NCBI GenBank assembly: GCA_017444825.1
Contig: JAFSVU010000015.1
Coordinates: forward strand, 413-64,412
Length of the DNA: 64,000 bases
DNA from: Clostridia bacterium
GTDB taxonomy: Bacteria > Bacillota > Clostridia > UBA1212
Reading direction: 5' to 3'
Shown: positions 957 to 52,111 of the stretch, in pieces
How positions within the stretch are numbered: the first letter of the stretch is position 1
Layout of the letters: the number at the start of each line of letters is the position of its first letter
The notes under the pieces: generated by a model
Database searches by the model: none
What the model was told of the DNA's origin: nothing
What the model saw: the letters and a program-made list of their open reading frames with translations, nothing else
Program-made: the position numbers and the translations under genes

Positions 957-1043
957 TGGTGCGGATAGCAGGACTTGAACCTGTATGGAGTCGCCCCCAC
1001 ACGGACCTGAACCGTGCGCGTCTGCCAATTCCGCCATATCCGC
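957..1043 (-). tRNA. tRNA-Leu (anticodon CAG), class II with long variable arm
   Basis: Reverse complement reads GCGGATA-TG-GCGGAATTGGCAGACGC-G-CACGG-TTCAGGT-CCGTG-TGGGGGCGACTCCATAC-AGGTTCAAGTCCTGC-TATCCGC-ACCA. The 7-bp acceptor stem pairs. Anticodon loop TT-CAG-GT. T-loop TTCAAGT. CCA is encoded. Confidence 0.8.
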
Positions 1044-1248: not shown

Positions 1249-2586
1249 TTAGTTGTGATATCTGTCATACAGAATTTCACCGCAAAGACTCAGCTTTTCG
1301 CGGAGCGTCAATGCCGTGTCGCTGACGTATTCATCTGCCCACGAGTAAACCTCTTCGGGAATTTTGCCTTCGGTAAGAAGCTTGCCCTCCAGCGTACTTA
1401 TGAGTATACGGCTGCCTTCGAGATAATTGTTTAGCTTTTCCGCGAAAGAGACCATCGAGTCCACCGGCAATGGATCTTTGCCGTTTCGGTCAAAGCTTAC
1501 GGACATACCGTCTGCCGCGTAAAACCCTTCAGTCTCCGAATAGGCGTAGAGCACGAAGGTGTAGTTGGAGATGCCCTGGTTGGTGTAGGGACAGTATTGG
1601 AGTATGCAATACTTGCCGTCAACGGTACAGAGGCTGAAGCTGTTCCATTGTGGATGGTAGCAGCTGAGCGACAGATCAAGTGTCTTTTCACCCGCCCCAG
1701 TGGCTTTCAGAATGAAGACCGGCAGGGAGTCTTCGGTGTCCATCTGCACGATTTCAACATTTTCTGTCTTGCCGTCGCCGTTAAAGTCTTCCGACAGCTG
1801 CTTCAGCGTTTTGTATCGGCGGTGTATACTGTCCTCGATGAGCTTGGCGTTTTCGGAATCGAGCCTGTGGGCAAATTGCCACGGGTTGATGATATGCTCG
1901 AAGTCTCCGGCGGTGCTTGACGTGCAGAACAGATATTCCTGCCCTATTGCCACTGTGCAGTCATCGTCACCGCCAACGCAGATCACCGGCGCCGACCCGT
2001 CGGCTGCAAGGCCTGAAGCTATGAGCAACTCTGCCTGCTCGGTTTCATTGTATCCCTTGAGGCCGCCGATCTTGCATATCTTTGTCTCTTCCGAGACCGT
2101 CCCCTTTCGCCTTTCTCCTACGGTCACCGTGTAGACCGTATGGAGCATGGCGGACGCAGTTCCTTCTTCCGCGGGATCTACCGTTTTCCCTGTTTTAAGG
2201 TCAATAACGGCAAAAGAGATATCCGAAACAACGCCGGTGAAAATATTGGTCGAGGCGTCGATTATCTCCTCCGCGGTTTTGTATACAGGCCAGTCTGCGT
2301 TCACAACGTTGTACAGATAGCCTTCTGACTCCTTTGAGTCGCCGTCCTCAGTCGAAAGATCCTTCGGATAATCTCCGGGGTCCACAGGGTGTTTGCCGCC
2401 AAGGAACCGGATGCCGAGAACCGCGGCGACCGACGCGATCACAAGAACCGCGGCAAGGGAGACCGCCAGCACTTTTACCCGCGCCGCAGTCTTTTCCTCC
2501 TTCGCCTTCTTTTTTTCTATCATTTCACCGTATTCCGGACTGTTGACGATGGAGGACATAGTCTTCCTGAATTCACCGTTTTCCAT
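1249..2586 (-). CDS. anti-sigma-factor-like single-pass membrane protein (short cytoplasmic N-terminus, one TM helix, roughly 390-aa extracytoplasmic domain)
   Basis: 445 aa. A hydrophobic helix VKVLAVSLAAVLVIASVAAVLGI follows a charged N-terminus. The gene overlaps the upstream regulator gene by 14 nt (2573-2586), the usual sigma/anti-sigma arrangement. Confidence 0.55.
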   Translation of the reverse strand: MENGEFRKTMSSIVNSPEYGEMIEKKKAKEEKTAARVKVLAVSLAAVLVIASVAAVLGIRFLGGKHPVDPGDYPKDLSTEDGDSKESEGYLYNVVNADWPVYKTAEEIIDASTNIFTGVVSDISFAVIDLKTGKTVDPAEEGTASAMLHTVYTVTVGERRKGTVSEETKICKIGGLKGYNETEQAELLIASGLAADGSAPVICVGGDDDCTVAIGQEYLFCTSSTAGDFEHIINPWQFAHRLDSENAKLIEDSIHRRYKTLKQLSEDFNGDGKTENVEIVQMDTEDSLPVFILKATGAGEKTLDLSLSCYHPQWNSFSLCTVDGKYCILQYCPYTNQGISNYTFVLYAYSETEGFYAADGMSVSFDRNGKDPLPVDSMVSFAEKLNNYLEGSRILISTLEGKLLTEGKIPEEVYSWADEYVSDTALTLREKLSLCGEILYDRYHN

Positions 2587-3073
2587 TTTTGTGCTCCTTC
2601 AGAAACTGCCTGAGTTTTCTTCTGAGTCTCGAAAGTCTCATCCTGACCGCAGGCTCTGTCATGTTAAGCTCGTTGGCGATAGTCTTGACCGTTTTCATAA
2701 ACGAGTACCGTCCCGTGAAGATCACGTTGTCCTTCGAATTCTGTTTCGACAGAAAATCCCGCAGCGCAGTCTCGAGCTCATGAGCCTCCCTGTTTTCCGA
2801 AGAGACATCAGATGCCATTTCTTCTATTTCGGCATCGATGATCCCGAGCTCCGCATGCGAGGCGTAGGCGTACCCTTTATCGCCAATGATATCGCTTTCA
2901 GCTACTCCGAAGAGCTTCGCCATTCCGGAAACAGAGCAGCCGTCAGGCACACGGGTGCCTGCCTCCCACATTGCCACGAGGGACCGGGACACGAAAAGGC
3001 GGTCCGCAAGATCCTGCTGTGTCAGGCCGTTATCATTTCTCAGTTTGGCGATGATCTCTTGAGTATCCTTCAT
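2573..3073 (-). CDS. two-HTH regulator: N-terminal XRE-family helix-turn-helix fused to a C-terminal sigma-70 region-4 (ECF-type) domain, with no region 2
   Basis: 166 aa. LRNDNGLTQQDLADRLFVSRSLVAMWEAGTRVP is a Cro/C1-type HTH. VIFTGRYSFMKTVKTIANELNMTEPAVRMRLSRLRRKLRQFL matches sigma-70 region 4.2. No sigma region-2 motifs lie between them. Confidence 0.6.
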   Translation of the reverse strand: MKDTQEIIAKLRNDNGLTQQDLADRLFVSRSLVAMWEAGTRVPDGCSVSGMAKLFGVAESDIIGDKGYAYASHAELGIIDAEIEEMASDVSSENREAHELETALRDFLSKQNSKDNVIFTGRYSFMKTVKTIANELNMTEPAVRMRLSRLRRKLRQFLKEHKNGKR

Positions 3074-3430
3074 TCTTTATCCCGTTGTCAAAAGCAATGC
3101 CGACAGTGCCGCAAAAGTATGACCGGTCACTTTTGCCCTTTCATTCTATCACAACCAAGGACGTATGTCTGTCACAAAAGGTAACAGGTCCAAGTTCCCT
3201 GAAACCGCGGGACGAAAGGCCTCATGCCGGGTCAAACCCCTTGCAATACTTCCGCGCGGTTCAGAAAAGCTTCAAGCCGTTTTCTCAGCTTGAGAAGCTT
3301 TATATGCAGATAAAAATCGAGAAAAAAAGCGTCGATAGCCATAAAAATCCGAAGGCAATGGCATCGAATGAGATTGGCTGGATTGATGAAAAAACAACCC
3401 CGAAGCATTGAATTTCGAGGTTGCTTCATG

Positions 3431-3571
3431 TTGCGGAACCGCCGCCTTGAACCTGTATGGAGTCGCCCCCACACGGACCTGATGGTAGCGTGACCTTGGT
3501 GAAAAATGTGTGCCAGCGAATATCTTTCCTGCGCATTATCCACTAATACTATTCCGTACCAGTCCACTATT
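3431..3571 (-). repeat. att-like repeat copy 3 (attP-like: B arm + 29-bp tRNA core + A-prime arm); its 45-bp stretch 3439-3483 is identical to 10540-10584
   Basis: The 29-bp core tgtatggagtcgcccccacacggacctga lies at 3455-3483. The B arm (3484-3571) is homologous to 150-226. The A-prime arm ccgccgccttgaacc is shared with the copy at 10540-10554. The repeat abuts the immunity-gene stop codon. Confidence 0.75.
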
Positions 3572-3930
3572 TAGGATAAATCAAAACTTGTATAACCCAA
3601 TTCAATTATTGCCCTTTCCAAGTCAAGAAATAATCTTACAGCGGATTGCCTTTTAAACAAATGCCATAACAGATTATCTCTCAAGACCACCTTAATTTTG
3701 GGTTTAGAATAAAAAATAAATGATAGACTTGTAATGTCCCTAGTAGCCACGCACAAAGAATTAGTTTTATTCTCAATAGAGTAGTTTTGAGCGCATTCTT
3801 TTAGAGAAATTAAAAGCTTTTTATTTTTGGAATGAAGAATTATACAGTCATTATTAATTTCAAATGAACGAGGACTAAATACATTAATCATTTGAAGATG
3901 TGCCTCCTTTTTATTGTGTAAGAAAAACAT
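3571..3930 (-). CDS. putative cognate immunity protein for the RHS C-terminal toxin
   Basis: 119-aa low-GC ORF immediately downstream of the RHS gene, overlapping it by 20 nt (3911-3930). This is the typical position of toxin-immunity pairs in RHS/WapA loci. Confidence 0.5.
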   Translation of the reverse strand: MFFLHNKKEAHLQMINVFSPRSFEINNDCIILHSKNKKLLISLKECAQNYSIENKTNSLCVATRDITSLSFIFYSKPKIKVVLRDNLLWHLFKRQSAVRLFLDLERAIIELGYTSFDLS

Positions 3931-6900
3931 TAATTATTTCATAGCCAAGCGCTCTTAATGCAGCTATTCTATGATGACCATCTGCGATTTGATACAACCC
4001 TTCTCCTATTTCTGAAACAAAAATTTTCCCGTATCCATCTTGAGGGATAGATTTGATATAATTTTCTATGACACCTTCTGCTGGTCCAACAGTGACAAAA
4101 TCGTCTGATGGATTGTTAACTATTCTATCAAGTTTTACTTTAGTTGGCACTATACCTGATTTTTGCAACAATTTTCTAATCTCGAATATAGCTGCACCGA
4201 TTATAGCACCGCCTGCTGTAGCGACAACTGTACCGCTGTTTCCTTTCTCATTAAACTCCTCTACTGAATTCGAAGTGGAAGCAGCTGACAAAACCGCCAT
4301 GCCATAAACAGCGGCCGAGCCTATAAACGCTCCAGCTGCAATAGTTGACGCTGTTGTAACACCAGCAATTCCAGAGGCAACTAAACCAACAGTAGTTGCT
4401 GCTGCAGCAAATCCTCCACAAGTAATAACAGTCGCAGCAGCACAAGCCACAACAATAGCCGCGCCTATAGCCCAATGCCACCATGCTTTTCCGCTAGGAT
4501 CAATATGGTTTACCGGATCATTCCCGCAATAACAGAACAGGTTCGTTCCAAGCGGTCCGTCCTGCAGATTCAGTTGCGAATCTGGATTTATGAATCTTCC
4601 CATTACAGGATCATAATATCTGCTCTGCAGATAATAAAAGCCGGTCTCTTTATCGTAATAATAGCCGCGGTATCTGATAGGATTGATGTAACCTATGCTC
4701 GTTGTGTCATTCGTGATGTCATTGCCGCTGCCATCTTTAATCGATACGACAGAGCCCCATGTATCGTAGGTATAAACAGCAACGACCGCGCCTGAACTGT
4801 TAATTATGTGAGTTACATCCCCCTGAATATTTCTCACATATCTGTAATGCGATGTCCCCGATCCGTTCTGATAATATGAAAACCCGCATACGCGTCCCGC
4901 TCCGTCGAAATCATAGACGATCTCATAAGAGCCGTCCGTTGCCCACTCTGATCTAAGTCTGTTGCCGATCCAACAGTACTTAATAGTTGTCAAATTTAGA
5001 GTATTGGAAATGTGGGATTTTTGCGTTCTGAGACCGTCAGCGTCATACACGTAATTGTACGGAAATGTGACTCCGTAGCCTTTGGCTGAAGCAAGTCTGT
5101 TCCCCTGCGTCCATGTTAGATCTCTTAGGAAATATTTTGTCGGATTGTATATCGCATCATAGCCGAAATATGTAGAAGTTCCGTAATATGTGGTCAAAAG
5201 ATCGCTGTACGAGTTCAAATACCCGCTGACAGCAAAGGCAACATGCTGAACGCTTGACTCGAGATTTTGTGTTAACACGGTCGGGCTGTACGGAAATGTA
5301 ATCTTTGCGGTTCTGTTTCCTCGATTATCGTAGTAGTATTTGATCGTGTATCCGTTCCCGCTATTCAGCTTTTTGTTGTCTTCACGAATGAGCTGCCCCA
5401 ATGAATCGTATTCAAAGTTGTGGGTTTGAACACCTTTTTCCGAAATCGTCTTGATCTTTCCGTTTTCATAATAGGTGTATGTCAAAGTCGGTACGGATGA
5501 TATTGAACATGTTTCCGAGGAAACAAGAGCAGTCTCATTCGAAACGCTATAGAAATGATCATTGTACAAGACGCTGCTTGTTTTTGTAAGATACGTATAT
5601 GATTTGGTTAACGGAGTGCTTGAATTGCCGTAACTCGATGATGTGATCCTTCCGAAATTATCGAATGTAATAACCTTTTTCGCAAAAGTACCGGTCCCGG
5701 TTATTGTCTTATTGCCTTCGTCAACTGTTGTTATCGACCTGTACTCCAATCCTGTAAAAGCTGTTGTAAAACGTTCGTATTCCGTATTCGTGCCCGTAGA
5801 GTAATGATAGGTCACTTCATTGCCGTCGCTCGAAAGGATATATACAAGTTTTCCTTCCTGATCGTAACTGTATTCTTTTGTGACAGTACCGGCGGAATTC
5901 GACCGGTCGATATATTTAACAACGTTCCCTTTCTGGTCATAAAACCATGCGAAAGTCGCATTGTCCACAGTTGCGTTTGCCGAAAAAGCTATGAATTTAA
6001 GATTTCCCTGAGCATCGTAACTGTAATACTTTGTCTGACCGTTTCCATAATCCAGCCTTGTCAATAAACCGTATACTCCGTATGTGTAGGAGGCCATGTT
6101 TCGAAGCAGGCTTGCATTGCTGTCTAAAATGGAAAATGAAGTCTTTTTACCCTCATTGTTTCTATCAAAACAATAGGAAATAGTATCTCCGGTGACACTT
6201 ATGCTGTCCGCGGAATAGCTCATTCCGAACGAAGCAGTTCCGACGGTTTCCGAAGACAAGCGTCCGTATGAATCGTACGTGTAGTAAGTGACCGTTCCGT
6301 CTCCGTCAGTAACAGACAGGAGATCCTGCGTTGTCAAAGAATAGGAATATGTGATATATCTTCCCGAATCGTCTGTTTCCTTTTCAAGCAAAGATCCGTC
6401 AGACGAATAAATAAAGAACCGGTGAGATGTCTCATTGCCGTTTGTATCCACTTCTATTTCGGTTACGCTTCCGTGCGAGTTATACGCATAATACGTTTGC
6501 GTGCAAATGTCAGAGCTACCTGCGGCGCTCGGAACGAACAATTCGGTGACTGACGTGATCTGTGTCGGAATCAGACTGTTGTACTCATATGTTACCGTTG
6601 TCTCGTTGTTTCTTCGATCATTTGAAACCGTTTCGGTAAGCAGTGAAGGGATATACGGATCATACGAGTATTCGGTCCATATGCCCGAAAAAGTCCTCTC
6701 TTTTTCAATTCGCCCTAACAGATCATAATAGTATAAACTTCTGTCCGAATAGTCGCCTATCTTGTTAACATATTCCACCGTAACACCGCCGAACAGAACG
6801 TCGGTATAGTTGTAGTCATTTACGAGACTGACGGTGACGTAGCCCGAATAGCTTTCTACGGGGATTATTACACTAAAAAACTGCCAGTCCTTCGTCGCAG

Positions 6901-9900
6901 AAGAAAACAGGAATTCTTCATCCGGGACATTTCCGTTGCCAAAATGCAGAACTATTCCGAATCTTCCTGTGGTGACAGCTTTGCCTTTACCGAATCCGCT
7001 GACAACAAGATACGCTCCGGAATATACGGGTGTAGACAGCACCTGGCTGACACTCCTCGTTTGACCTATGTTTCCCGGAACCGATATACTTCTGATACGT
7101 TCGTTTGTGACAACGGTCGGAGTAAACGATCCGCTCACTGTCCATGCGGATAACCCGTTATAGAACCCGCTGTCGGAGATCTGATTTGCCGGTCTTGAAT
7201 TTGCACCCTCAGTGAGCGAAACAAGGTCGAAATATAGATTGCCGCTGAGATTTTTGACGCCAATGAGTATGTATATGCTCCCTGCCGTTGCCGAATCCGG
7301 TATTTCAAATGTGTACTGGGCAGTCGCGTCGAGATCATAATTGAGACAAGGAGAAAGCAATCTTACGTTCGAAGTAGAAGCAGTGTTGTACATTATCCCA
7401 AGGACAACTCCTCCGAATCCGTTTAATGATGCAACATCTACATCGGCAGACAGAGTGTATGTTTTCCCGGGCACTGCGGCCGACACCGGATACTTTGCGT
7501 AGACTTCCGAAGACTGACTCGACGAATACAGTCTGAAACAATCACTTCCGTGTTTTGACGATAAAAAATGACCGCTGGTATCCGCGGAATAAAGACCTCC
7601 TGACCCGGACACGGAATACAAAACCCACGAACTGGTTTTTTCCGAGAAATCTTTTACAAGATTGCTGTCGACCATCAAAGACGAAGTCTTACCGGTAACG
7701 AGATGCATATTCGACAGATCTTCGCCGTCATATTCACTCCCGGAAACGTTTCCGTAGCTGTCAAATACCGAGGATGTCCGTCCGTTTCTGTCAAAATATA
7801 TGTACTCTGTCCAGATAGCGTCAATGGACAGAAAACCATACCTGTAACCATATTCGGTATGGTCTCCATACGTGATATATGCTATCTCACTCATACCATA
7901 AACGCCTTCGTCGTCTGCAGCGTATTTAATGATATATGATACCCGGTTTATTCCGTTAGTTGCGCCCGAGGTGTATCCAAACTGAACATATTGTCTGTCA
8001 TAGGTCTCGGCAGATGTTTTTCTGTACCCGAATCGGGATATGGTTCCGTTTGTGTTGTATGCAAATGTGCTACTTTCCCCAGAAGATGTGTTTATTGCTG
8101 TAAGATAATTGCCGGTATATGAGAAAGAAATACCGCGCAGAGGACAATCCGCGTTTTCGACTGTCGTAAGTCGCGAGCCGCTATAGACAAAATCGATCTC
8201 CAAACCGCTTCCGTCAAAAACACAATTAATTTGAGAAGATGATCCTGAATAACAGATTATATAGCTATCACCGTATTCATTTTCGAATTCGCAAAGATAA
8301 CCGTAAGAATTGAAATATGCCTTACTTCCATCGCTGAATTCGATCATCCTTGCTGCCGGATCGTAGAGATCGAACGGATTTTCTTCGGAGAAATAAAAAT
8401 AGCCCGACCCGGGGACAAAGTAGTGTTTTGCTCCGGTTCCGTCTGTAAGGACATAATAGGTGTATGTGTCGTCGTTGATATCCGTGACTGTCTCTGCCTT
8501 CATCGTCTGCATTATCGAAGGTCTCCAGCCTGTTCCGTAATATGTATCCGTCGCCGTGCCGATAAATGAAGAATTAAACACCAGATCAACGGACACAGGC
8601 AATATCTCACCTTTAGTGGAAATCCCCGGATGAATGAATGTCAAATCACCATTTATGTCTTTGATACATGCCGTTCCTGAACCGTCAATGGAAATTCTGT
8701 GAGTGGACTGATATGAATTAAGTCCTGAGTGATCCGCATAAGTAATTTGAAGTGCAGTAAGGACACTATGTGCAAAAGACGGCATTGTTCCGTAAAGGCA
8801 TTCCGCTCCAAACATGAATCCATTGTTTGCGCCTGAAAAAGTGTGGCGCATTACATTGGTGATATCAAGATCAAAATAGATATTTGCATAAGGTAGGAAA
8901 ATATACTGGTTCCTGCAGGAATCCGTCAGTCCCTCAAAAGCGGAAGGAACCGAAGGCAGTGTTCCTCCCGCCAGGACTGCCTGTGGAGACCACGTATCAC
9001 TGATCATTTCAGACCGAAACGCATAGGTGCCGGTGTAAGTGACCGGGGATGAATTATTGACACTAAATGATGCTACTGCATGCGTGATAACTGCACTGTC
9101 GGGAATTCCGTTTAAAATACAGTCATCAAATTTGATGTAAGAAACCGTGTTTGCGCCCACTGCGATCGTATTCCACCGCGTTGAGCCGTTGACATATACT
9201 GCCTCATAAGCGTAATCATCATCCGGATACGAAATGCTGATCGTAGGATCGATTTTGACGGGAAATTCCCTGTTCTCATCATTTATCCACTCTGCATCGG
9301 CAATGACAGTGATAAGATAACCGTTTTCGGTTTCAACAAGAGTGAGAAAGACTTGATCCGAACATTCGTCCTTGGCGTCTTTCATATACTCTGCGGTCAA
9401 TTTGTAAACTGCGTTTCCGGATTCATCATATATGAAAACACAGTTGTCTTTTAGCAAAGCACTGCTGTTATTTACTGAAAGAATAAACGGGTATACGTAC
9501 TGTTCGAAACCGCCCTCGTTTACGACAATATTTTCTTTTATCTCATAGGGCTTTATCGAATATTCAAGAGAAGCGGAAGGAGAAGTGTCAGAACCTGAAA
9601 ACAAATTATTGTAAACAACAGTCCCGTTCTCACAGGGGTTTTCGGTCAGCAGTTCATCATCGGTGTGAGTAGCCGATTCATACCGTGCCTCAGAAGGTTC
9701 TGCTAAAGAAGTAACGGGAGTAAGAGAAAGAGATACACCGTTGTAATCAAGATCAATTAGTTCATTGGCGTCTTCCGAAGAAGCAGCAAACGAGAGTGTA
9801 TAGGGAGCATCGGTAGTTGAAAGTCGTCCCTCCTGCTCGTGAAGAGTAAGGTTGATCTTCTTCCATACTCCCTCACCGGTTTTGTAATTGACCGGGCTGC

Positions 9901-10357
9901 CGAACACTAAACGTGTATGGTTACCGTTTCTAAGAGCATAATCTCTCGTAAAAGCACTGTTAAGATCCGGTTTCTGATAGCTGACATCGGAGCGTTTGTA
10001 GGGATCAATGTTCTCGACAGTCGCAGGTTGCCCGAGTTTTTCCAGCGCAAGCTGTTCATATTCCGATAATTTGTCAGGATATGATATCTCACCGGGTACA
10101 GGATCACCTTCGGGCGTTTCAGGATATTTGGGCAATGCGGTATAGTCAGGATCAAGAAGCGTTGCGGGTGATTCTTCAGCATAAACATTTGAAAAGATCC
10201 TTGTCGGTATCAACGTGGCAAATATTGCCAAAACAAGGACAATCGCAACAGTTTTGATACCTATGCTGAAATGCCTAATGTTGTTATCCATTATTAACAC
10301 TCCGAAATGAGCCGATGCATACGATGCATACTTTCTTTTTATGCTTTGATTATACAT
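3911..10357 (-). CDS. RHS/YD-repeat polymorphic toxin (WapA-like, secreted) with a C-terminal ParB/Srx-like nuclease toxin domain
   Basis: 2148 aa. An alternative start at 10291 (GGAG ribosome-binding site) gives MDNNIRHF...SNVYA|EE, a signal peptide. There are dozens of YD repeats (YTYDSYGRL, YSYDAQGNL, YSYDQEGKL, YVYDADGLRTQK, YTYDTWGSV). The RHS core ends YYLQSRYYDPVMGRFINPD and is followed by LFCYCGNDPVNHIDPSGK, a DPxG-type autoproteolysis motif. The C-terminal region (about 200 aa) has a Gly/Ala-rich hydrophobic segment followed by KIFVSEIGEGLYQIADGHHRIAALRALG, a ParB-type GxHRxxA box. GC content is lower than the flanks. Confidence 0.85.
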   Translation of the reverse strand: MYNQSIKRKYASYASAHFGVLIMDNNIRHFSIGIKTVAIVLVLAIFATLIPTRIFSNVYAEESPATLLDPDYTALPKYPETPEGDPVPGEISYPDKLSEYEQLALEKLGQPATVENIDPYKRSDVSYQKPDLNSAFTRDYALRNGNHTRLVFGSPVNYKTGEGVWKKINLTLHEQEGRLSTTDAPYTLSFAASSEDANELIDLDYNGVSLSLTPVTSLAEPSEARYESATHTDDELLTENPCENGTVVYNNLFSGSDTSPSASLEYSIKPYEIKENIVVNEGGFEQYVYPFILSVNNSSALLKDNCVFIYDESGNAVYKLTAEYMKDAKDECSDQVFLTLVETENGYLITVIADAEWINDENREFPVKIDPTISISYPDDDYAYEAVYVNGSTRWNTIAVGANTVSYIKFDDCILNGIPDSAVITHAVASFSVNNSSPVTYTGTYAFRSEMISDTWSPQAVLAGGTLPSVPSAFEGLTDSCRNQYIFLPYANIYFDLDITNVMRHTFSGANNGFMFGAECLYGTMPSFAHSVLTALQITYADHSGLNSYQSTHRISIDGSGTACIKDINGDLTFIHPGISTKGEILPVSVDLVFNSSFIGTATDTYYGTGWRPSIMQTMKAETVTDINDDTYTYYVLTDGTGAKHYFVPGSGYFYFSEENPFDLYDPAARMIEFSDGSKAYFNSYGYLCEFENEYGDSYIICYSGSSSQINCVFDGSGLEIDFVYSGSRLTTVENADCPLRGISFSYTGNYLTAINTSSGESSTFAYNTNGTISRFGYRKTSAETYDRQYVQFGYTSGATNGINRVSYIIKYAADDEGVYGMSEIAYITYGDHTEYGYRYGFLSIDAIWTEYIYFDRNGRTSSVFDSYGNVSGSEYDGEDLSNMHLVTGKTSSLMVDSNLVKDFSEKTSSWVLYSVSGSGGLYSADTSGHFLSSKHGSDCFRLYSSSQSSEVYAKYPVSAAVPGKTYTLSADVDVASLNGFGGVVLGIMYNTASTSNVRLLSPCLNYDLDATAQYTFEIPDSATAGSIYILIGVKNLSGNLYFDLVSLTEGANSRPANQISDSGFYNGLSAWTVSGSFTPTVVTNERIRSISVPGNIGQTRSVSQVLSTPVYSGAYLVVSGFGKGKAVTTGRFGIVLHFGNGNVPDEEFLFSSATKDWQFFSVIIPVESYSGYVTVSLVNDYNYTDVLFGGVTVEYVNKIGDYSDRSLYYYDLLGRIEKERTFSGIWTEYSYDPYIPSLLTETVSNDRRNNETTVTYEYNSLIPTQITSVTELFVPSAAGSSDICTQTYYAYNSHGSVTEIEVDTNGNETSHRFFIYSSDGSLLEKETDDSGRYITYSYSLTTQDLLSVTDGDGTVTYYTYDSYGRLSSETVGTASFGMSYSADSISVTGDTISYCFDRNNEGKKTSFSILDSNASLLRNMASYTYGVYGLLTRLDYGNGQTKYYSYDAQGNLKFIAFSANATVDNATFAWFYDQKGNVVKYIDRSNSAGTVTKEYSYDQEGKLVYILSSDGNEVTYHYSTGTNTEYERFTTAFTGLEYRSITTVDEGNKTITGTGTFAKKVITFDNFGRITSSSYGNSSTPLTKSYTYLTKTSSVLYNDHFYSVSNETALVSSETCSISSVPTLTYTYYENGKIKTISEKGVQTHNFEYDSLGQLIREDNKKLNSGNGYTIKYYYDNRGNRTAKITFPYSPTVLTQNLESSVQHVAFAVSGYLNSYSDLLTTYYGTSTYFGYDAIYNPTKYFLRDLTWTQGNRLASAKGYGVTFPYNYVYDADGLRTQKSHISNTLNLTTIKYCWIGNRLRSEWATDGSYEIVYDFDGAGRVCGFSYYQNGSGTSHYRYVRNIQGDVTHIINSSGAVVAVYTYDTWGSVVSIKDGSGNDITNDTTSIGYINPIRYRGYYYDKETGFYYLQSRYYDPVMGRFINPDSQLNLQDGPLGTNLFCYCGNDPVNHIDPSGKAWWHWAIGAAIVVACAAATVITCGGFAAAATTVGLVASGIAGVTTASTIAAGAFIGSAAVYGMAVLSAASTSNSVEEFNEKGNSGTVVATAGGAIIGAAIFEIRKLLQKSGIVPTKVKLDRIVNNPSDDFVTVGPAEGVIENYIKSIPQDGYGKIFVSEIGEGLYQIADGHHRIAALRALGYEIINVFLTQ

Positions 10358-10529
10358 CGTTTCCGACGGTCAAATCAATTGATTTTAAGCAGTTCATCGT
10401 AAGAGCAAGCGTCGCCTTTGGCTTGCCGATAAAGCGCAAGACCTTCGGCAAATGAACGGGCGGAAGCCCTGACCCACTTGCAAAAAACAATACAACCCCG
10501 AGAAAACGGTGATTCCCGAGGTTGTTTAA

Positions 10530-10620
10530 TGGTGCGCGGCCGCCGCCTTGAACCTGTATGGAGTCGCCCCCACACGGACCTGATACCTAAGCGCGTCTGC
10601 CAATTCCGCCATATCCGCAT
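10530..10620 (-). pseudogene. tRNA-Leu-derived pseudo-tRNA (attL-like: authentic 5-prime acceptor and D-arm, 29-bp core, foreign A-prime 3-prime end; anticodon and T stems no longer pair)
   Basis: The reverse complement begins GCGGATATGGCGGAATTGGCAGACGCGC, identical to the intact tRNA through the D-arm. It continues TTAGGTA-TCAGGTCCGTG...GGTTCAAGGCGGCGGCCGCGCACCA, which cannot form the anticodon stem, T stem or acceptor stem. Confidence 0.7.
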
Positions 10621-10648
10621 TGGCAATTCGTTTAAAACGAGCGGGGTC

Positions 10649-10692: not shown

Positions 10693-10729
10693 GCGGCCGC
10701 CCCTCGGGGGAGAGGCGGCGCATTTTTTA
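10693..10729. terminator. GC-rich hairpin (gcggccgcccctc/gggggagaggcggc) flanked by an A6/T6 tract; terminator-like, orientation ambiguous
   Basis: The hairpin is followed by TTTTTT on the plus strand. The T-run overlaps the stop codon of the minus-strand gene 10727..15910. No U-tract follows the hairpin on the minus strand. Confidence 0.3.
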
Positions 10730-13700
10730 CTCAAACTTCCATTTGTCTTTTTCGTTGATCGTCACCCTGATCCTGTCTGTCAGGCTGAACGCTCCTGTGC
10801 GTGGGTTCCTGATGTACGCGCTCTCCGCCGTAAACGTTCCCTCCACAGCGCCGCGTATCACGTAGGATACCGAGATCTCAAAGCCGTATTCGGGGCAGTC
10901 CTGTCTGAACCAGTTATTCTCGTTTTCGTAGATGCGGTTGTGCAGCGAGACGCCTCCCGTCATATTCTGGCCGCTGCTGTTATAAATGTAAGCGTATGCC
11001 GCCACCGTTCCGGACTCATACCGGGAGGAGGAGCTCGAGTCGATCGAGAGGAATCTGGCACCCGACGGTATCAGATCATAGAGTTCAAAGTACTCGTTTA
11101 CTCTGGTCGATCTTCCGCTGATTCGGAGAGTCACCAGGCAGTTGCCGTGGGAGTCATTGGTCATTGCCTTGGTTATCGAGACACGGCCGTCAGACTTTTG
11201 TCCGTCCAAAAGGGCCTCCTCCATGGTTCCCCTGTAATACACTCCCACCTTTGTGTCTCCTGGCAGACTCGTCTTCAACGAGTCAAGCTCCTGCTTTGAA
11301 AGAGTCAACGTAAAACTGCATCCCGGTTCGATCTTTACCGTCTCGGACGATTCGCCGATAGTATAGGTAAATTCGAGAGCATCAGCGGCTTCCCGGGGCA
11401 GGAAATGCTTGATATACGCGGCAAGTGCTATTCTGTCAGACACCGAATTCGTTCTGTTTTCGGAAAGCCAAAGCGCCAGCTTCGCGGCATCTTCCCGGTC
11501 GATCCTTGCGGCGCTCATGAGGGCAAGGCAGGACAGCTGAACAGTCGTGTCAAAATCACCGGCTTCGAACTTCAGCGAGCCGTATTCGCTGTCTTCAACG
11601 CCAATTTCAGACTTTACAAGAGCATAGACGTCATGTGCCGCGGGGTAGTCGCCGCAGACGGCAAAACCAAGTGCCAGCAGGAGCTTCGCCTCCGGAGAGT
11701 AGTTGCCCGCTTTGTCTGCGATCACGTAAAGTGTATCCAGAACGGGTTCTCCCAGCGCCGCCAGTGACACGACATTCGAGATCAGTTTCTCGGGCGACTC
11801 CTGATCGGTCGAGTTGACCGACGTACTGCAGGCTGATGCTATGTAATTCAAGGTTTGAGTGTCAAACGGCAGCCCGAGAGTCAGTACCAGAGCAGTCAGT
11901 TCGGGATCCGGCTCCGAATAGGGGAATACCCGGAACTGTCCGTCCGAAGCCGAGAAGTTGTCCTTCGTCAGCCTCATGAGCCTTTCCTGCTCCTGATCCG
12001 CCTTGATTCCGTAGAGGGCTTCCCTTGCCGCGGCTGCCGCGTAAAGACCCGCATATTCATCGGTCCTGCCGCTTCCCCTGTCGTTTGACAGCAGGCTTGT
12101 TATCCTTTCGTAGAAAGCGTAGGACGGCGTTCTGTTCGCAAACACAACTTTAACGGGATAGTACACAGGCGTGATGGTCTTGAGTTCGGAAACAGCCAAT
12201 GATCTTCCCACATCCGCGGCAACGGCACTCGTCACGAGGGTGAAGTCCGTTGTCGCAGCATCTTTGTTTTCTCCGCATTCCGCGTACACGGTCACGTGGT
12301 ACTGTCCCGGCTCCGACAGCTCGAATTTCAGCCAGCACCTCTCCTTTGAGTCTGCGCTGCCCGACGTTCTTCCTTTTTCATTGCCGAGAGCATCCGTAAG
12401 CACCGCGGTGTAGTTGACCGTTCCCGTAGCTTCCGATCCGTAGGATCTTGCGCTGAGGGATATTGTATCGCCAACGATATACTGCTCGCATATTCCTACA
12501 TTTACGAAGAAAGGCAGGGTGCAGATCACGTCCGAGACCGATGCGCCGATCTTCAGCTTTCCGTTTTCGGAGCCCGTGCCGCAAAGCGCATATGTCGAGA
12601 TCCTCCATGAAGTGATGTTGTCGGGGACGGTGAAGACCAGTGTCCCGCAGCCGTCACTGTCGAGTTCCACCACGTCATAGACCGGATTGTCCGCGAAATA
12701 CTTTCTTATATACCAGTCCGAGCTGCCGATGCCGCCGTCGCTGAGCCCTTCTGATTCGGGAGCCGCGCCCGGCCTTTCATCTGATAACGACAGAGAGTTA
12801 TCGGAACCGCCCTTTGAGCTCTTGGAGCCATTACTGTATGAAAGATCTCCGTAATCAACGTCCGAGTTTGTAAATGCCGGTTTAAACCTTGCGTTCATGA
12901 GAAACGTCGCTGCGCTCGACCGCTGTTTCGAGAAAATGCTCAAGGGCTCTATCTCCTGATCGCCGAGGGCAAAGCAGGCTTCATCGACGATGCTGACCAC
13001 AGCAACTCCGCCTCCTGCTCCGGGCACCTGAATCTTAATAATGGCTTTGTCCCCGGGCTTGTACGTATCCGAAGACGGGGTGATCACGGGTTTCAGCGTC
13101 GCATTGGCGGTGTCGTACCTGATCTCTTCGCCGGGTATCAGATACTCTCCGGTGGAGGAGTCGAAGACCACGGCGTAGAGATATCCGTCCGCTATCATAC
13201 TGTCGGTAAACGAAAACCGTACTTTTGACCCGTATTCCACCCCATAGATCCCGTTTGATCTTATAACAAACAGCGCTTTCCTCTTCTCCGGCGCAGTCCA
13301 GATCTCCGCCTCCACAGTGTCGCTTACCGAGTAGGTTTCGTCATTGAACAGGATCTCGGCCGTCAGGGATTGGTTGCTGCCGGAATAACCGGTGCCCGTC
13401 TTGCCCGCGGTACCGTTTAACGTATAGGTGTAAGTGTTGTTGCTCGTGTCATCGTAGAATGACACTTCGTAGGTGTAATATCCCTCAAACCCGCTGACCT
13501 CAAGGAGCGGGAACTCCGCAACACCGTTGACAAAGGACTTGACGTCGCTTTCGACCTGACTCTTGCGTACCTCGCAGGTATAATATTTAACGTTTTTCTT
13601 GGTGTATGAGTCGTACCTGGTCTTTTCGGTCCTCACTATGACGTTCTTCCAGAGCGTATAGGAAAGCGCATTTGCGGCTGACAGAGGCTCGCCAACGGTA

Positions 13701-15910
13701 TTCTCCGGGAACACACGCCAAAGCATGTCCTCCGGGGTCTTAAGGCCCGAAGTATCCCTCCGGTTCAAGGTGACGACAGCATTGGTTTTGTCCTGCCTCG
13801 TTGCCACGCAATAGTCGGAATGGAAATAGGGCACGCTATCCTGAACATACAGGTACTGCGTCTCGAAATTTGTGAGCTCGGCCGCAAAATACAGCGTGAC
13901 CGGGTTCGTTCCCCTGACCTCCCGATCGGTAAGATTCCGGGATTTATATACGATCTTCGCCTCGCCTTTTTCATCGGTCCTGACCGTCTGATGAGCATCG
14001 CCAAAGTAAGACAGCATGCAGTAAAACTCAAGGCCCTCCGCGGGGGTTCCGTCAAAGAACGATGCCGTAAGAGTCACTGTTATCTGTTCGCCTCTGCGGT
14101 AGAAAAGCTTGTCGAAGCTTATCGAGGCTGTGTACTGGGGCTTTTGTTCCTCTGTGATCCTGAAGGTGCCTGAAGTCAGGATGCGCCCGCTTTCATCGCT
14201 GAATTTCAGCTGATAATAGCCCTGGGAGCAGCGGGAATACGTGAACGATCCCCGGAAAAATCCGTTCTTGTCCACTTCCACCCTGGTCTTCAGCGTCGAA
14301 AGACCGGTCTCCAGATAAAGATGGTCGGGAACCGTTCCACCGAAGGAAGGCGTGATATATCCGCTGAAGTTGATGGTGTCGTCGGAAAAATAGACTTCTC
14401 TGTCGGTATAGACGTAGCTGAGATAGTAGTCGTATGTGTCTTCGGGTCTCACCGCTGCGCAGACGACGATCCCGTCCGAGCCTTTTTCAGCAATGATCAC
14501 GGCGGAATAAGCTTCGCTGCTGTCAAACTCGGCGATTCCCGATGCGTCTGTTTTTACTTTCTGCTGCTTGCCGACAATTTCAGCGTTCCACCCTTCATTC
14601 CTGCTGAGCAGGCTCACCGTCACGTCGGCACCTTCCACAGGGCCTTCGGCATTGGCTATGCTGTTGATCCAGATGATGGACTTGCCGTTTGACGATACGG
14701 TGTACGGACGGAGATTGGACACCTGGATGATGACCGACTTTGTGTCCTTGAGGGTCTTTCCGAATCCGTAAGAAACGGAAGCTGTGATCTTTGCGACGTA
14801 AACACCCTTGGCAAGACCTGTGCCGAGATCCAGATAACAGTTTGTCGTATACCTGTCTTTTTCCGTTTGAGGGGTAAAGGTCCCTACCTTGGTCAGCCCG
14901 GAAAGATCGGGTCCGGAGCCGGTATCGTCCCCCGCCCGTGTCTCGAAGTCGATTATCGTGTCGGCGGCCTCCTTTGCGGATCCGAAGGAATACAGATCGC
15001 AGGTGACGTTCGGGGTCTCGGTTATACTGGTGTATACAGTAAACCTCATGACTGCGTCCGACCTTGGCGAGAAGATGTTGTCCCATCCGTCGTTGGATGT
15101 CGTCAGTATCCGTATAAACTCTCTGGAGTCTGAGCCGAGTGCGCTTTCGTAGGCTTTTGTGCAGGTTCTGAAGGTCGCCGTTTTACCGCTCTCCAAAGTC
15201 CTGCCCGATATGCCCTTTATCCCACTGTTTACGGTGACGGTATATACGGTGTTGTACAAGAGCTTCGATGACGGGCGGAACAGCACGGTCCTTCCGTTCG
15301 GATAAACGGAAAACTCGCCCTTGACCTCAGGCGACACCGTGAAATACTTCATGCCCGGTTCGGAGACGACGGCCTCGGAAAAAGTCACCTCTATGCCCGT
15401 GTCCACAGGCACGTTCAGCGTCTTGTCTCCGGGGAACATCGAAGTGACCACCATATCGTTCTGAGTCTGGAATGCATACGACGCGGCGGGATTCTCCGGA
15501 TCGCCGAGGGTCAGTCTATATATCTGCCCCGGCACCAGTTTACCCGACGAGGGGACGATCCTGAATTTATTTGAAGACAGCCTGGTAACGGAAGTCGCGA
15601 TGGCCGGCGTCATCGTCAGATAATTCGCAAGGGTCTCCACGTCGGTCTCCCCTGAAGTCTCGACAATAAACGCGCCGTCAACGGGTATCACGCCTGAGCT
15701 GACCCCGTCCGCGGTGATCTTAACGCTTGAAAGCTCCGAGGGAAGCACCGGGCTCTTGCCCGAATAGTCTCCGCCCGTAAAAACAATTGGCTCGGGATCG
15801 GGGAAACCACTCCCTCCCGTATTTCTGCAGCCGCTGAGCAGGCCTCCCATGGGGAGCGCCGAAACAAGCATCACAGCGGCAATGATAATAGAGATAACAC
15901 GTTTTTTCAT
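10727..15910 (-). CDS. giant lipoprotein built of tandem Ig-like/MG-type beta-sandwich domains; possibly alpha-2-macroglobulin family, thioester-less
   Basis: 1727 aa. Lipobox MKKRVISIIIAAVMLVSALPMGGLLSGC. Repetitive beta-rich modules are followed by an alpha-helical domain near residues 1200-1400. No CxEQ thioester motif was found. Confidence 0.55.
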   Translation of the reverse strand: MKKRVISIIIAAVMLVSALPMGGLLSGCRNTGGSGFPDPEPIVFTGGDYSGKSPVLPSELSSVKITADGVSSGVIPVDGAFIVETSGETDVETLANYLTMTPAIATSVTRLSSNKFRIVPSSGKLVPGQIYRLTLGDPENPAASYAFQTQNDMVVTSMFPGDKTLNVPVDTGIEVTFSEAVVSEPGMKYFTVSPEVKGEFSVYPNGRTVLFRPSSKLLYNTVYTVTVNSGIKGISGRTLESGKTATFRTCTKAYESALGSDSREFIRILTTSNDGWDNIFSPRSDAVMRFTVYTSITETPNVTCDLYSFGSAKEAADTIIDFETRAGDDTGSGPDLSGLTKVGTFTPQTEKDRYTTNCYLDLGTGLAKGVYVAKITASVSYGFGKTLKDTKSVIIQVSNLRPYTVSSNGKSIIWINSIANAEGPVEGADVTVSLLSRNEGWNAEIVGKQQKVKTDASGIAEFDSSEAYSAVIIAEKGSDGIVVCAAVRPEDTYDYYLSYVYTDREVYFSDDTINFSGYITPSFGGTVPDHLYLETGLSTLKTRVEVDKNGFFRGSFTYSRCSQGYYQLKFSDESGRILTSGTFRITEEQKPQYTASISFDKLFYRRGEQITVTLTASFFDGTPAEGLEFYCMLSYFGDAHQTVRTDEKGEAKIVYKSRNLTDREVRGTNPVTLYFAAELTNFETQYLYVQDSVPYFHSDYCVATRQDKTNAVVTLNRRDTSGLKTPEDMLWRVFPENTVGEPLSAANALSYTLWKNVIVRTEKTRYDSYTKKNVKYYTCEVRKSQVESDVKSFVNGVAEFPLLEVSGFEGYYTYEVSFYDDTSNNTYTYTLNGTAGKTGTGYSGSNQSLTAEILFNDETYSVSDTVEAEIWTAPEKRKALFVIRSNGIYGVEYGSKVRFSFTDSMIADGYLYAVVFDSSTGEYLIPGEEIRYDTANATLKPVITPSSDTYKPGDKAIIKIQVPGAGGGVAVVSIVDEACFALGDQEIEPLSIFSKQRSSAATFLMNARFKPAFTNSDVDYGDLSYSNGSKSSKGGSDNSLSLSDERPGAAPESEGLSDGGIGSSDWYIRKYFADNPVYDVVELDSDGCGTLVFTVPDNITSWRISTYALCGTGSENGKLKIGASVSDVICTLPFFVNVGICEQYIVGDTISLSARSYGSEATGTVNYTAVLTDALGNEKGRTSGSADSKERCWLKFELSEPGQYHVTVYAECGENKDAATTDFTLVTSAVAADVGRSLAVSELKTITPVYYPVKVVFANRTPSYAFYERITSLLSNDRGSGRTDEYAGLYAAAAAREALYGIKADQEQERLMRLTKDNFSASDGQFRVFPYSEPDPELTALVLTLGLPFDTQTLNYIASACSTSVNSTDQESPEKLISNVVSLAALGEPVLDTLYVIADKAGNYSPEAKLLLALGFAVCGDYPAAHDVYALVKSEIGVEDSEYGSLKFEAGDFDTTVQLSCLALMSAARIDREDAAKLALWLSENRTNSVSDRIALAAYIKHFLPREAADALEFTYTIGESSETVKIEPGCSFTLTLSKQELDSLKTSLPGDTKVGVYYRGTMEEALLDGQKSDGRVSITKAMTNDSHGNCLVTLRISGRSTRVNEYFELYDLIPSGARFLSIDSSSSSRYESGTVAAYAYIYNSSGQNMTGGVSLHNRIYENENNWFRQDCPEYGFEISVSYVIRGAVEGTFTAESAYIRNPRTGAFSLTDRIRVTINEKDKWKFE

Positions 15911-19340: not shown

Positions 19341-20309
19341 TCAGATCAGACACACTTTAACTTCCCGCTGGGTGATCTCAAAAGGCGTGCGGCCGTTGAC
19401 CGCCTGCCGGCAGATATCCAGCGTTTTTTGCATTTTTACGACCGTTTTGCAGAGCAGATCGTTGACGACGGGGTCGTTGCCGTCGACCGTGAGAGTGAAC
19501 GCGTCCTTTTCGATCCTGAGTTCCCGCACAGCCCTGTGCATTTTGTGGTGAAGCAGCTGCAAGTCATTCGAAATGGATCCCAGGTCGTAGAGAAGTACGG
19601 GGCTACGCTCGGCAGTCACGTCAATTTCATCCGCCAGGCGTACGAGCGACGCAAGATAGGGCAGACATACCTTTTCACCGTCGGGCATAGCCATAGCCGC
19701 AGGGTAGCTGTTTTCATCCATAAGATCTGTTTTTCTGTGGCCCCTGGAGATCTGAAAGACGGCGTCCAGGTGGGCTTTACTTGGAAACTCGAACAGTTCC
19801 GCGTATTTCCGGACGAACAATCCGGAGTACTCGTTGTGGAAGTCGCGTATCTGTTCAGACATCGACGCGCCGGGATGTTTCTCAAAATAATCGCCAAAGT
19901 CGATCTGCCGCGAGAAAGCCTCAAAGTCTTTTTCGGTGATTCCCATGCCTGTGTCGTGAAAATAACACCCCAGCAGCAATACGTAAAGCTCGTTCCTGTT
20001 GAGACGGCTCAGCTGGTCGCCGATCAGCTTGTTGCAGAACTGTATCACGGTTATGGTATGGAGCTCGGTGTGATCGGTGTATTCGGGGAATATGAGTTTA
20101 TAGTTTGAAAGGATGCGCTGAAGCGCGAAAACACAGTCGGTAAATCTCTTGTGAAGGCCGCCGTCAAGTTCGCGGAGCCTGTATTCGAGAGCAAAGCTGT
20201 TTGAATCGTCCAACACTGTTTTTTCACCCGCCTTAACGACTGATCTTCCCGCGGGAGTGTAGCAGAAAGAAGCCTTATTGTCAATGCGGGAACCCTTCTC
20301 GCAGAGCAC
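19341..20309 (-). CDS. HD-domain phosphohydrolase
   Basis: 322 aa. H..H (HTELHTITV) and HD (YFHDTGM) motifs of the HD superfamily. Confidence 0.7.
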   Translation of the reverse strand: MLCEKGSRIDNKASFCYTPAGRSVVKAGEKTVLDDSNSFALEYRLRELDGGLHKRFTDCVFALQRILSNYKLIFPEYTDHTELHTITVIQFCNKLIGDQLSRLNRNELYVLLLGCYFHDTGMGITEKDFEAFSRQIDFGDYFEKHPGASMSEQIRDFHNEYSGLFVRKYAELFEFPSKAHLDAVFQISRGHRKTDLMDENSYPAAMAMPDGEKVCLPYLASLVRLADEIDVTAERSPVLLYDLGSISNDLQLLHHKMHRAVRELRIEKDAFTLTVDGNDPVVNDLLCKTVVKMQKTLDICRQAVNGRTPFEITQREVKVCLI

Positions 20310-51050: not shown

Positions 51051-51275
51051 GTAGGGCCATCTCCAATTCATGGTATTTAGACTTTTCAGTGACTACAGAT
51101 AGATAAAATAAGGGGAGAATTGTCAAGTGTTTTTGCGGCAGGCAGGTTTGGCCCGAGGTGTGAGTTTGTTTGGTGCCAGTTTGGCACCTTATTGCAGTAT
51201 TTCTCGTGCCATTTTGGCATTAAAGCAGTTGATTTTATGGTGCCAAAACTGTACAATATTGGCGAGGTGATAAAA

Positions 51276-51746
51276 ATGTCTGTACGACAGCTACGCGAAT
51301 CAAAAGGATTGACGCAGATTCAATGCGCTGAATACCTGCAGATCCCCATCCGGACATACAGGCGATATGAATCCGACGAGAACAAGATCAACCGGATCAA
51401 ATATCAGTACATTATCGATCGACTTAATGCATACGGCCTGATTGATGAAACACACGGAAAGCTGACGATTGACCGGATCAAGGAAGTCTGCAGCCAAATT
51501 TTTCCTTCATATTCAGTGGAGTATTGTTTCCTGTTCGGTTCCTACGCCAAGGGGACAGCGACGGAGACCAGCGACGTTGACCTGCTTGTTTCCGTACCGG
51601 TCAACGGGCTGAAGTTTTTTGAATTGATAGAGCTGCTTCGTGAAAACCTGAAGAAAAAAGTGGATCTTCTGGATGTGGCACAGCTAAACAACAATCCAAC
51701 GCTGGTGCAGGAAATACTAAGAGATGGGGTCAAAATATATGGATAG
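51276..51746 (+). CDS. mnt: MNT-type nucleotidyltransferase antitoxin with N-terminal XRE helix-turn-helix
   Basis: GGCGAGGTG ribosome-binding site. HTH LRESKGLTQIQCAEYLQIPIRTYRRYE. Nucleotidyltransferase motif LFGSYAKGTATETSDVDLLV. Confidence 0.7.
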   Translation: MSVRQLRESKGLTQIQCAEYLQIPIRTYRRYESDENKINRIKYQYIIDRLNAYGLIDETHGKLTIDRIKEVCSQIFPSYSVEYCFLFGSYAKGTATETSDVDLLVSVPVNGLKFFELIELLRENLKKKVDLLDVAQLNNNPTLVQEILRDGVKIYG

Positions 51747-52077
51747 CGCAAAGAATGATGAATACTATGTTGAAAAGATAAAATCCGACTTGAAGTTTGT
51801 GATCGATCACACTGCCGGAAAATCGAGAGAAAAAATCGAATCCGACGAGCTACTCGTTGATTCTATCATGTTCCGTATTATTCAAATTTCAGAGAATAAC
51901 GGAAACCTCACAGAGGATTTCAAAGCCGCACACACCAATGTCCCTTGGATTGCCATCAAGGGCATGCGCAACAAAATCGTACACAATTACGGTCATGTTG
52001 ACTTTGCCATTGTATACGACACAGTTATTCGCGGAATACCTGAGATGCTAAAACAACTAGAAACACTGTCTGATTGA
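51739..52077 (+). CDS. hepT: HepT (DUF86) RNase toxin
   Basis: 8-bp overlap with mnt. Rx4HxY motif MRNKIVHNY. Confidence 0.7.
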   Translation: MDSAKNDEYYVEKIKSDLKFVIDHTAGKSREKIESDELLVDSIMFRIIQISENNGNLTEDFKAAHTNVPWIAIKGMRNKIVHNYGHVDFAIVYDTVIRGIPEMLKQLETLSD

Positions 52078-52111
52078 GTGAAACCCTGTGTGTAAGGGAT
52101 GGCCGTTCCGG

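Follow-up and report, generated by a model that had tools for sequence, protein, structure and literature searches.

A minimal ParB/Srx-fold domain at the C-terminus of a predicted Sec-exported RHS toxin from a Clostridia bacterium, and its putative immunity gene

The window analysed here, a stretch of 64,000 nucleotides (nt) from a Clostridia bacterium (GTDB lineage Bacteria; Bacillota; Clostridia; UBA1212; assembly GCA_017444825.1, contig JAFSVU010000015.1, positions 413 to 64,412 of the forward strand), carries on its minus strand a gene for an RHS/YD-repeat polymorphic toxin (3911..10357), followed by a small gene for a putative immunity protein. The toxin open reading frame (ORF) is present and intact, as originally predicted from the sequence, and its longest reading comprises 2148 amino acids (aa), whose numbering is followed throughout. 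The preferred reading of the whole locus, held with moderate confidence, is that of an RHS toxin of a gut bacterium which would be exported by the Sec system and would combine a hydrophobic entry module, a warhead of the ParB/sulfiredoxin (Srx) fold dependent on a nucleoside triphosphate (NTP) and an immunity protein of 106 aa. The toxin belongs to Tox-ParB, a kind described in 2012, within a distinct Gram-positive RHS clade, and does not represent a new kind of system.

The C-terminal domain can be assigned securely, by family profile and structure model, to the ParB/Srx superfamily, as had been claimed at the outset. A profile of 34 relatives, run against PDB sequences, matched Noc (E 9e-5), SerK (1.6e-4), a plant sulfiredoxin (2.4e-4), SbnI (4.5e-4) and ParB (0.01), which belong to one superfamily and make up nearly all the significant matches. 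Moreover, four of the 34 relatives matched PF02195 individually (best 4.1e-9), and one sub-branch (P0148, P0155-P0162) carries a precomputed PF02195 annotation. The comparison with Pfam suggested in the original prediction thus succeeded with the family profile only: the single window sequence gave no match to Pfam ParB_N at E<=1, staying below the gathering threshold, and its matches in NCBIfam were all sub-threshold (SerK, 4e-4; SbnI, 0.014; parB_part, 0.026, with 14.3 bits against a cutoff of 58).

Structure prediction of the domain alone, which had also been suggested, gave a ParB/Srx fold. With AlphaFold2 (AF2) the predicted local distance difference test (pLDDT) rose from 40.7 on the single sequence to 92.4 with the 34-sequence alignment (predicted template modelling score, pTM, 0.77). 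In the modelled topology the leading helix of the linker is followed by a strand, a short helix, a helix, two strands, a helix and a final strand (E-h-H-E-E-H-E). When this model was compared with the PDB by Foldseek, the top 50 matches were all ParB/Srx proteins (SbnI, Noc, SerK, Srx, ParB, KorB and PadC), with a probability of 1.00, E-values of 4e-5 to 3e-3 and template modelling (TM) scores of 0.52-0.69 by query, the score being 0.70 when normalised to the 89-residue Srx of A. thaliana. A reading of the 'GHH' letters as an HNH/EndoVII motif of the Tox-GHH type was rejected, as none of the 34 relatives matched Tox-GHH or HNH and both the topology and the PDB matches are those of ParB/Srx.

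The minimal toxin domain occupies residues 2072-2148 (3914..4144, minus strand). An exhaustive HMMER search with the last 91 aa over 1.84 billion representative sequences returned 252 matches, among which about 45 are true homologues, aligned in a single stretch at the very C-terminal end of RHS proteins or of fragments (best, 62% identity, E 4e-30). The homologues all end at the same position, with ...FLTK or ...FLVP, which argues that the short domain is complete and not truncated. Around 200 of the 252 matches were discarded as spurious, being multi-stretch alignments of residues ~2084-2130 to the Reg_prop/Y_Y_Y beta-propeller repeats of hybrid sensor kinases. This segment (3968-4108, VIENYIKSIPQDGYGKIFVSEIGEGLYQI) resembles propeller repeats such as those of PDB 3v9f and contaminates single-sequence searches; the likeness is judged to be convergent. 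A word-index search with the 91-aa domain found no homologue, and tblastn of plasmids gave no match.

In the alignment of the 34 relatives, D2085, H2129 and G2138 are invariant, and N2082, P2092, I2104, G2127, H2128, A2133 and L2134 are conserved in at least 90% of the sequences. By order and spacing, three motifs of the domain would correspond to the nucleotide pocket of ParB. NNPSD (residues 2081-2085; 4103..4117, minus strand), extended to NNPSD(D)F at 2081-2087 and including the invariant D2085, would be the equivalent of NPxQPR (P-motif 1), while S2103-I2104-x3-G2108-Y2109 would correspond to SIxxxG of Box I. The string GHHR (2127-2130; 3968..3979, minus strand), representing the GxxR of Box II or P-motif, is paired with GERR in the HMMER alignment to Noc and with GHHR in that to SerK, and opens the helix after the beta-hairpin. 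It forms part of ADGHHRIAAL (2125-2134) and, being preceded by Asp on an RHS carrier, shows the DGHHR motif that characterises Tox-ParB. N2082, D2085, I2104, G2127, H2128 and H2129 map onto motifs lining the nucleotide in ParB and in ToxB, a ParB-fold toxin borne by a CdiA protein. Box III, the helix-turn-helix (HTH), the dimerisation domain and the ParA-binding motif are absent, and the protein stops 18 residues after R2130.

The Arg of this motif is present in 26 of the 34 relatives and is replaced by Thr, Leu or Asn in the other eight. Seven of these eight Arg-less sequences have Lys at position 2100, a residue never found there together with Arg at 2130 (phylogenetic non-independence of the 34 relatives being uncorrected), and the 26 sequences with Arg have Tyr, His or Trp at 2100. 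Position 2100 lies three residues before the Ser of Box I and by spacing equals L71, a base-pocket residue of C. crescentus ParB; the covarying codons of Y2100 and R2130 occupy 4058-4060 and 3968-3970 on the minus strand. The pattern suggests that Lys 2100 supplies a relocated positive, phosphate-binding charge, and hence that the nucleotide pocket is under selection and functional across the relatives.

The gene downstream of the toxin is supported as its cognate immunity gene by conserved linkage. It occupies 3571..3891 on the minus strand (106 codons plus stop; coding 3574-3891), its ATG at 3891 lies 19 nt downstream of the toxin gene, and a strong Shine-Dalgarno sequence, AAAGGAGG (3903..3910), follows the toxin stop codon without a gap. 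The original prediction had listed it as a 119-aa protein; its role as immunity gene stands, and the length is corrected to 106 aa because of the position of AAAGGAGG, in agreement with public gene calls and with homologues of 106-107 aa located downstream of related toxins. The protein has no transmembrane segment and is expected to be soluble.

Related loci were sought in 185,579 species genomes with a 7-sequence alignment and a pattern that required GHHR, which left out the Arg-less variants. The 20 loci found all belong to metagenome-assembled genomes of Bacillota (Oscillospiraceae, Acutalibacteraceae, Christensenellaceae, Eubacteriales, Acholeplasmatales, Anaeroplasmatales and Coprobacillus), and those with a named sample source come from the gut (Hadza human gut, water-deer cecum). 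A homologue of the window's immunity protein (family A, 106-107 aa, E 1e-24 to 1e-27) begins 12-17 nt after the toxin stop in seven of the 20, and in 11 a different family B is found, with proteins of 129-166 aa that start with MG[MVI][AE][SD][FY]Y. Toxin domains of the same clade, sharing 56-77% mutual identity, pair with either A or B (loci L001-L020). Apart from sub-threshold noise, neither family matched Pfam at E<=0.1, so they are not Imm20, Imm27 or Imm-SuFu. Furthermore, in-frame fusions of toxin and immunity protein, or remnants of them, occur in P0067 and L010.

The carrier is an RHS/YD polymorphic toxin, as first proposed, and all the strings on which that proposal drew are found in it: RYYDPVMGRF at 1913, DPSGK at 1953, KLDRIVNNPSD at 2075 and GHHRIAAL at 2127. 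Its YD/RHS repeats match Pfam RHS_repeat PF05593 (E 1.4e-6) and TIGR01643 (E 1.4e-9), with a weak match to PF25023 TEN_YD-shell in precomputed annotation. The RHS repeat-associated core (residues 1864-1956; 4490..4768, minus strand), which includes RYYDPVMGRF, matches TIGR03696 over the full model length (E 8.2e-21). It is closed by a DPSG/K autoproteolysis-type motif (4487-4501, minus strand), where cleavage is predicted from the motif, the core end NDPVNHIDPSG/K, within the stretch NDPVNHIDPSGK, fitting PxxxxDPxG. The features that define an RHS toxin are all found: a repeat shell, a core with PxxxxDPxG, an exchangeable C-terminal domain and a downstream immunity gene. The N-terminal 1100 residues share 22-29% identity with the RHS proteins of the related loci.

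Translation, which ends at TAA 3911-3913, likely starts at ATG 10291 (M23), giving a protein of 2126 aa rather than 2148. This start is preferred because it has GGAG (10300-10303) at a distance of 8 nt on its upstream side and agrees with the gene calls of three public metagenome assemblies, and because the upstream ATG 10357 sits within TTGATT-18-TATAAT (10349..10378, minus strand), a consensus match to a promoter whose -10 box abuts and overlaps that codon. Read from M23, the protein begins with a predicted Sec-type signal peptide, recognised from hydropathy and sequence (M23..VYA60; 10178..10291, minus strand), with a basic n-region, a hydrophobic core reaching 2.2-2.3 on the Kyte-Doolittle scale and a putative cleavage site at VYA/EES. 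No trafficking domain of the PAAR, VgrG, LXG or WXG type was detected in the toxin with Pfam and NCBIfam, no TPS or FilH domain with Pfam, and no cell-wall-binding domain (CW_binding, SLH) with Pfam or NCBIfam at E<=1. This set of absences points to export by Sec alone. The initial description of the protein as WapA-like is thus retained as regards Sec-dependent export and abandoned as regards wall binding.

The last 200 residues had been taken for one variable toxin, a view that missed a hydrophobic module and has to be replaced: a Gly/Ala-rich segment of 103 aa (residues 1958-2060; 4178..4486, minus strand), defined by composition, hydropathy and a linker profile, precedes the ParB-like domain of ~80 aa. 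Gly and Ala make up 41% of it, and D, E, K and R are absent from its first 71 residues (1958-2028). Three hydrophobic helix-lengths are followed by the polar loop VEEFNEKGNSG and by a fourth hydrophobic helix. The linker profile retrieves the same segment ahead of Tox-REase-9 (P0192, E 6.5e-21), of at least three other unrelated domains (P0170, P0189, P0198) and of another ParB-like variant with GNHR (P0193). Since it precedes unrelated toxin domains, the segment is probably a delivery or pre-toxin module separable from the warhead. Two linker types exist among the relatives, and the window is a mosaic, with a type II-like linker on a toxin whose clade elsewhere has type I. By analogy with the Tse5 cargo and the Tde1 glycine zipper, the module probably has a role in entry through the target membrane: Tse5 is an Rhs protein with a pore-forming cargo fragment whose hydrophobic segment is shielded in the Rhs cage (PMC10684867), and the N-terminal glycine zipper of Tde1 permeabilises the target membrane for entry of the effector (PMC10240207).

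A mechanism may be proposed from these features. The YD-repeat shell would enclose the C-terminal cargo, and aspartyl autoproteolysis at DPSG/K would release it. Most likely, the hydrophobic segment of ~100 aa would then insert in the membrane of the target cell and carry the warhead across. The ParB/Srx domain of ~80 aa would bind a nucleoside triphosphate through NNPxD, SIxxxGY and GHHR. By analogy with ToxB, killing would most likely result from binding of the NTP, probably ATP, together with its hydrolysis or a phosphotransfer, and not from DNA cutting. The producer would be protected by the cytosolic 106-aa protein, presumably by binding the warhead.

Several points weigh against this mechanism. 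The window sequence alone reaches no curated ParB threshold. For the toxin clade of the window, the NTP mechanism is argued from fold and motifs, and the proposition that the domain works like ToxB draws likewise on a shared fold and shared motifs, a likeness at the level of the superfamily. ToxB has GNHR and adenine-stacking residues, for which the window equivalents, S2103 and Y2109, are guessed by spacing. Osa and the Srx of A. thaliana have been reported to show DNase activity from the same site (PMC4619093). As to the linker, P0148 and P0161 have polar ones, and the hydrophobic module is accordingly not obligatory; [GAS]xxx[GAS] motifs number 22 in the window, against 23 +/- 2.6 from composition, and in view of this lack of enrichment the label 'glycine zipper' was rejected.

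Among the other explanations, one is possible though rather doubtful. It takes the domain to be the smallest known ParB/Srx enzyme, an ATP-dependent phosphotransferase acting on a conserved cellular substrate like SerK, SbnI and Srx, and neither a simple ATPase nor a DNase, with the hydrophobic segment as a self-sufficient translocation device common to numerous RHS toxins that Gram-positive gut bacteria export by Sec. Another alternative, already adopted in the original prediction, is a DNase-type effector, in which the GHHR/Asp site would coordinate a metal and hydrolyse phosphodiester bonds in the DNA of the target cell. Nucleases predominate among polymorphic toxins, relatives in the PDB are annotated as 'ParB-like nuclease', and the same linker bears a nuclease of the restriction-endonuclease (REase) fold in other proteins; in addition to the reports on Osa and plant Srx, a metal site at DGHHR with possible nuclease activity was predicted by Zhang et al. 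in 2012 (PMC3482391). That same study, however, doubts the label and traces it to erroneous assumptions, the 80-aa domain offers no HTH or other DNA-binding surface, and ToxB, the sole ParB-fold polymorphic toxin that has been tested, hydrolyses ATP while sparing genomic DNA and inducing no SOS response (bioRxiv 10.64898/2026.05.05.722872). A DNase is consequently considered unlikely, and the initial proposal unsupported.

It is still less probable, to the point of being very unlikely, that the hydrophobic Gly/Ala segment is the real toxin, which would form pores or depolarise membranes as Tse5-CT or EsxX do, with the ParB-like domain as an accessory. Its 71 uncharged residues would be long enough for ~3 membrane spans, Tse5 offers a precedent of an Rhs protein with pore-forming cargo (PMC10684867), and glycine-zipper toxins such as EsxX depolarise membranes. 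Nevertheless, the segment precedes several unrelated catalytic toxin domains, as expected of a delivery module, and is missing from relatives with polar linkers. The immunity proteins are soluble and covary with the ParB-like clade and not with the linker type (in the window, immunity family A goes with a type II-like linker), and the fusions in P0067 and L010 join immunity protein to the ParB-like domain. Least probable of all, and hardly to be entertained, is a decaying or inactive locus whose minimal domain is a truncated and inactive fragment of ParB. In favour of this, the domain stops short of Box III and of all that would come after it, the surrounding island has no integrase, and clear remnants exist among the related loci (L010, L019, L015). 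Against this, the ORF of 2148 codons is intact and has a promoter-like site, a ribosome-binding site and a predicted signal peptide, the homologues share their end point and conserve the motifs, and an identical locus occurs in at least four of eight independent metagenome contigs carrying the immunity gene. Moreover, Srx is equally short and ToxB likewise has no Box III.

Both genes, toxin and immunity, belong to a low-GC island of 7 kb (43-46%, against ~54% in the rest). Repeat comparison places its upstream boundary at a degenerate, near-full-length tRNA-Leu-like sequence (10529..10633, minus strand), followed by a terminator-like hairpin (10492-10525), and its downstream boundary at a direct repeat of the tRNA-Leu 3' half (3428..3506, minus strand). 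An intact tRNA-Leu(CAG) is found at 957-1043 (minus strand) and a further 3'-half repeat at 95-173; the 3' half recurs three times with an identical core of 37 nt. These repeats look like att sites. A public contig of 7095 bp bears exactly this island and ends about at the repeats, no integrase was found within the island, and no general association with tRNAs was found for the related loci.

Other genes of the window were also recorded. A second mini-island between tRNA-Leu repeats contains a DUF4304 gene (226-621). A 111-aa ORF at 3232-3567 (minus strand), considered as a second immunity gene, was rejected as read-through of the tRNA-Leu-derived repeat; together with a 100-aa ORF at 937-1239 on the same strand, with which it has the peptide VWGRLHTGS in common, it is regarded as spurious. 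The immunity gene is followed (1249-3073, minus strand) by a gene for a 166-aa protein with HTH_3 and sigma-70 region 4 and an overlapping one for a 445-aa protein with one transmembrane segment and no Pfam match; both co-occur with the immunity gene in three independent metagenome contigs and may be sigma/anti-sigma-like regulators. Directly upstream of the island, with host-like GC content, lies the gene of a 1727-aa alpha-2-macroglobulin-like protein (Big_5, MG2, A2M_BRD, A2M; 10727-15910, minus strand), which is probably unrelated to the toxin, and a 322-aa protein with an HD-CE domain (PF24391, E 8e-36) is encoded at 19341-20309 (minus strand). A second low-GC patch (51120-53748, 43-47%) has two tandem genes for TIR-domain proteins (52112-52936 and 52969-53748, minus strand) beside an HTH plus nucleotidyltransferase (MNT-like) gene with a small downstream ORF, and looks like a defence or toxin-antitoxin (TA) cluster. 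Finally, at 61559-63345 a DUF6577 protein precedes an AbiEii nucleotidyltransferase toxin, a pair of the AbiE type (type IV TA/abortive infection).

As regards the meaning of the locus, it adds a distinct and equally rare clade of ParB-fold toxins, carried on RHS proteins that Bacillota of gut and rumen are predicted to export by Sec, with a warhead still more minimal than ToxB. This clade pairs with two unrelated and previously undescribed immunity families, exhibits what appears to be a natural relocation of Arg to Lys in the nucleotide pocket and has a hydrophobic pre-toxin segment in common with nuclease toxins. The default annotation as 'ParB-like nuclease' would shift towards an NTP-dependent mechanism. 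With a toxin domain of 80 aa and an immunity protein of 106 aa, the pair also offers a small system for finding the cellular target of ParB-fold toxins, and, if the phosphotransferase and translocation reading were true, a tractable minimal one for both ParB-fold toxin action and the crossing of membranes by Gram-positive RHS cargo.

The closest described group is Tox-ParB, defined by Zhang, de Souza, Anantharaman, Iyer and Aravind in 2012 by a conserved DGHHR, with RHS and FilH carriers that include proteins of Firmicutes (PMC3482391). These authors predicted nuclease activity tentatively, attributing the 'nuclease' label of ParB to erroneous assumptions and noting that Srx is a phosphotransferase (PMC3482391). 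As no curated Tox-ParB model exists, the comparison was made by published motif and carrier. Tox-ParB resembles the window toxin in its C-terminal ParB fold, the DGHHR motif, RHS or FilH carriers, occurrence in Firmicutes, Sec export (type II secretion system) and a downstream immunity gene. It differs in its immunity proteins, which are Imm20, Imm27 and Imm-SuFu, whereas families A and B have no Pfam match; furthermore, the clade of the window has mostly NGHHR rather than DGHHR, and a quarter of its members lack the Arg.

The only characterised ParB-fold polymorphic toxin is the CdiA-CT toxin ToxB, described by Kaljevic et al. in May 2026 as a ParB-CTPase fold without Box III or dimerisation domain (bioRxiv 10.64898/2026.05.05.722872). 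ToxB is monomeric and specific for ATP, which it binds with a Kd of ~87 uM and hydrolyses at a rate of ~300 per hour through GNHR, D75, Y81 and R82; it leaves genomic DNA intact without an SOS response while the nucleoid compacts, and its immunity protein iToxB is a dimer that occludes the ATP site. The same report names no cellular target for it and leaves room for a phosphotransfer product. The survey included in that work reported only CdiA-borne ToxB, in Enterobacterales, called it rare and never mentioned Rhs. Both toxins have a C-terminal warhead of the ParB-CTPase fold that keeps Box I and Box II but has lost Box III, the HTH and the dimerisation domain, an entry segment before the toxic core and a small downstream immunity protein. 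ToxB differs in being borne by a CdiA of the type V secretion system, with VENN and cdiBAI, in Enterobacterales, in contrast to the predicted Sec-exported RHS cage with DPSG/K of Bacillota, and in having GNHR instead of GHHR and a single entry helix instead of a hydrophobic module of ~100 aa. Tse5 and Tde1 share with the window a hydrophobic Gly-rich segment, but they are effectors of type VI secretion systems in Gram-negative bacteria, whereas that of the window toxin is a modular pre-toxin domain placed ahead of an enzyme-like one.

In sequence and structure the best matches are Srx, the ADP-dependent serine kinase SerK and SbnI, which bind adenine nucleotides at the GxHR helix. SerK and SbnI share DGHHR with the window toxin, and Srx is of similar minimal size (89-110 aa). 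Unlike the toxin, these are housekeeping enzymes with defined substrates, at ~15-25% identity; SerK and SbnI have extra C-terminal domains and Srx a catalytic Cys (GCHR). The CTPase clamps ParB, Noc and KorB have the same fold in their N-terminal domain and the same order and spacing of NPxQPR, SIxxxG and GxxR, but they also possess HTH, Box III (ENxxR), a dimerisation domain and a ParA-binding motif. As for the carrier, the reference is WapA of Bacillus subtilis, whose C-terminal domains are tRNases. It differs from the window in warhead class and in its cell-wall-binding repeats, which were not detected here. With WapA and other Gram-positive Sec-dependent RHS toxins, the window toxin shares a predicted signal peptide and an RHS shell, as well as a C-terminal toxin part that varies and has its immunity gene downstream.

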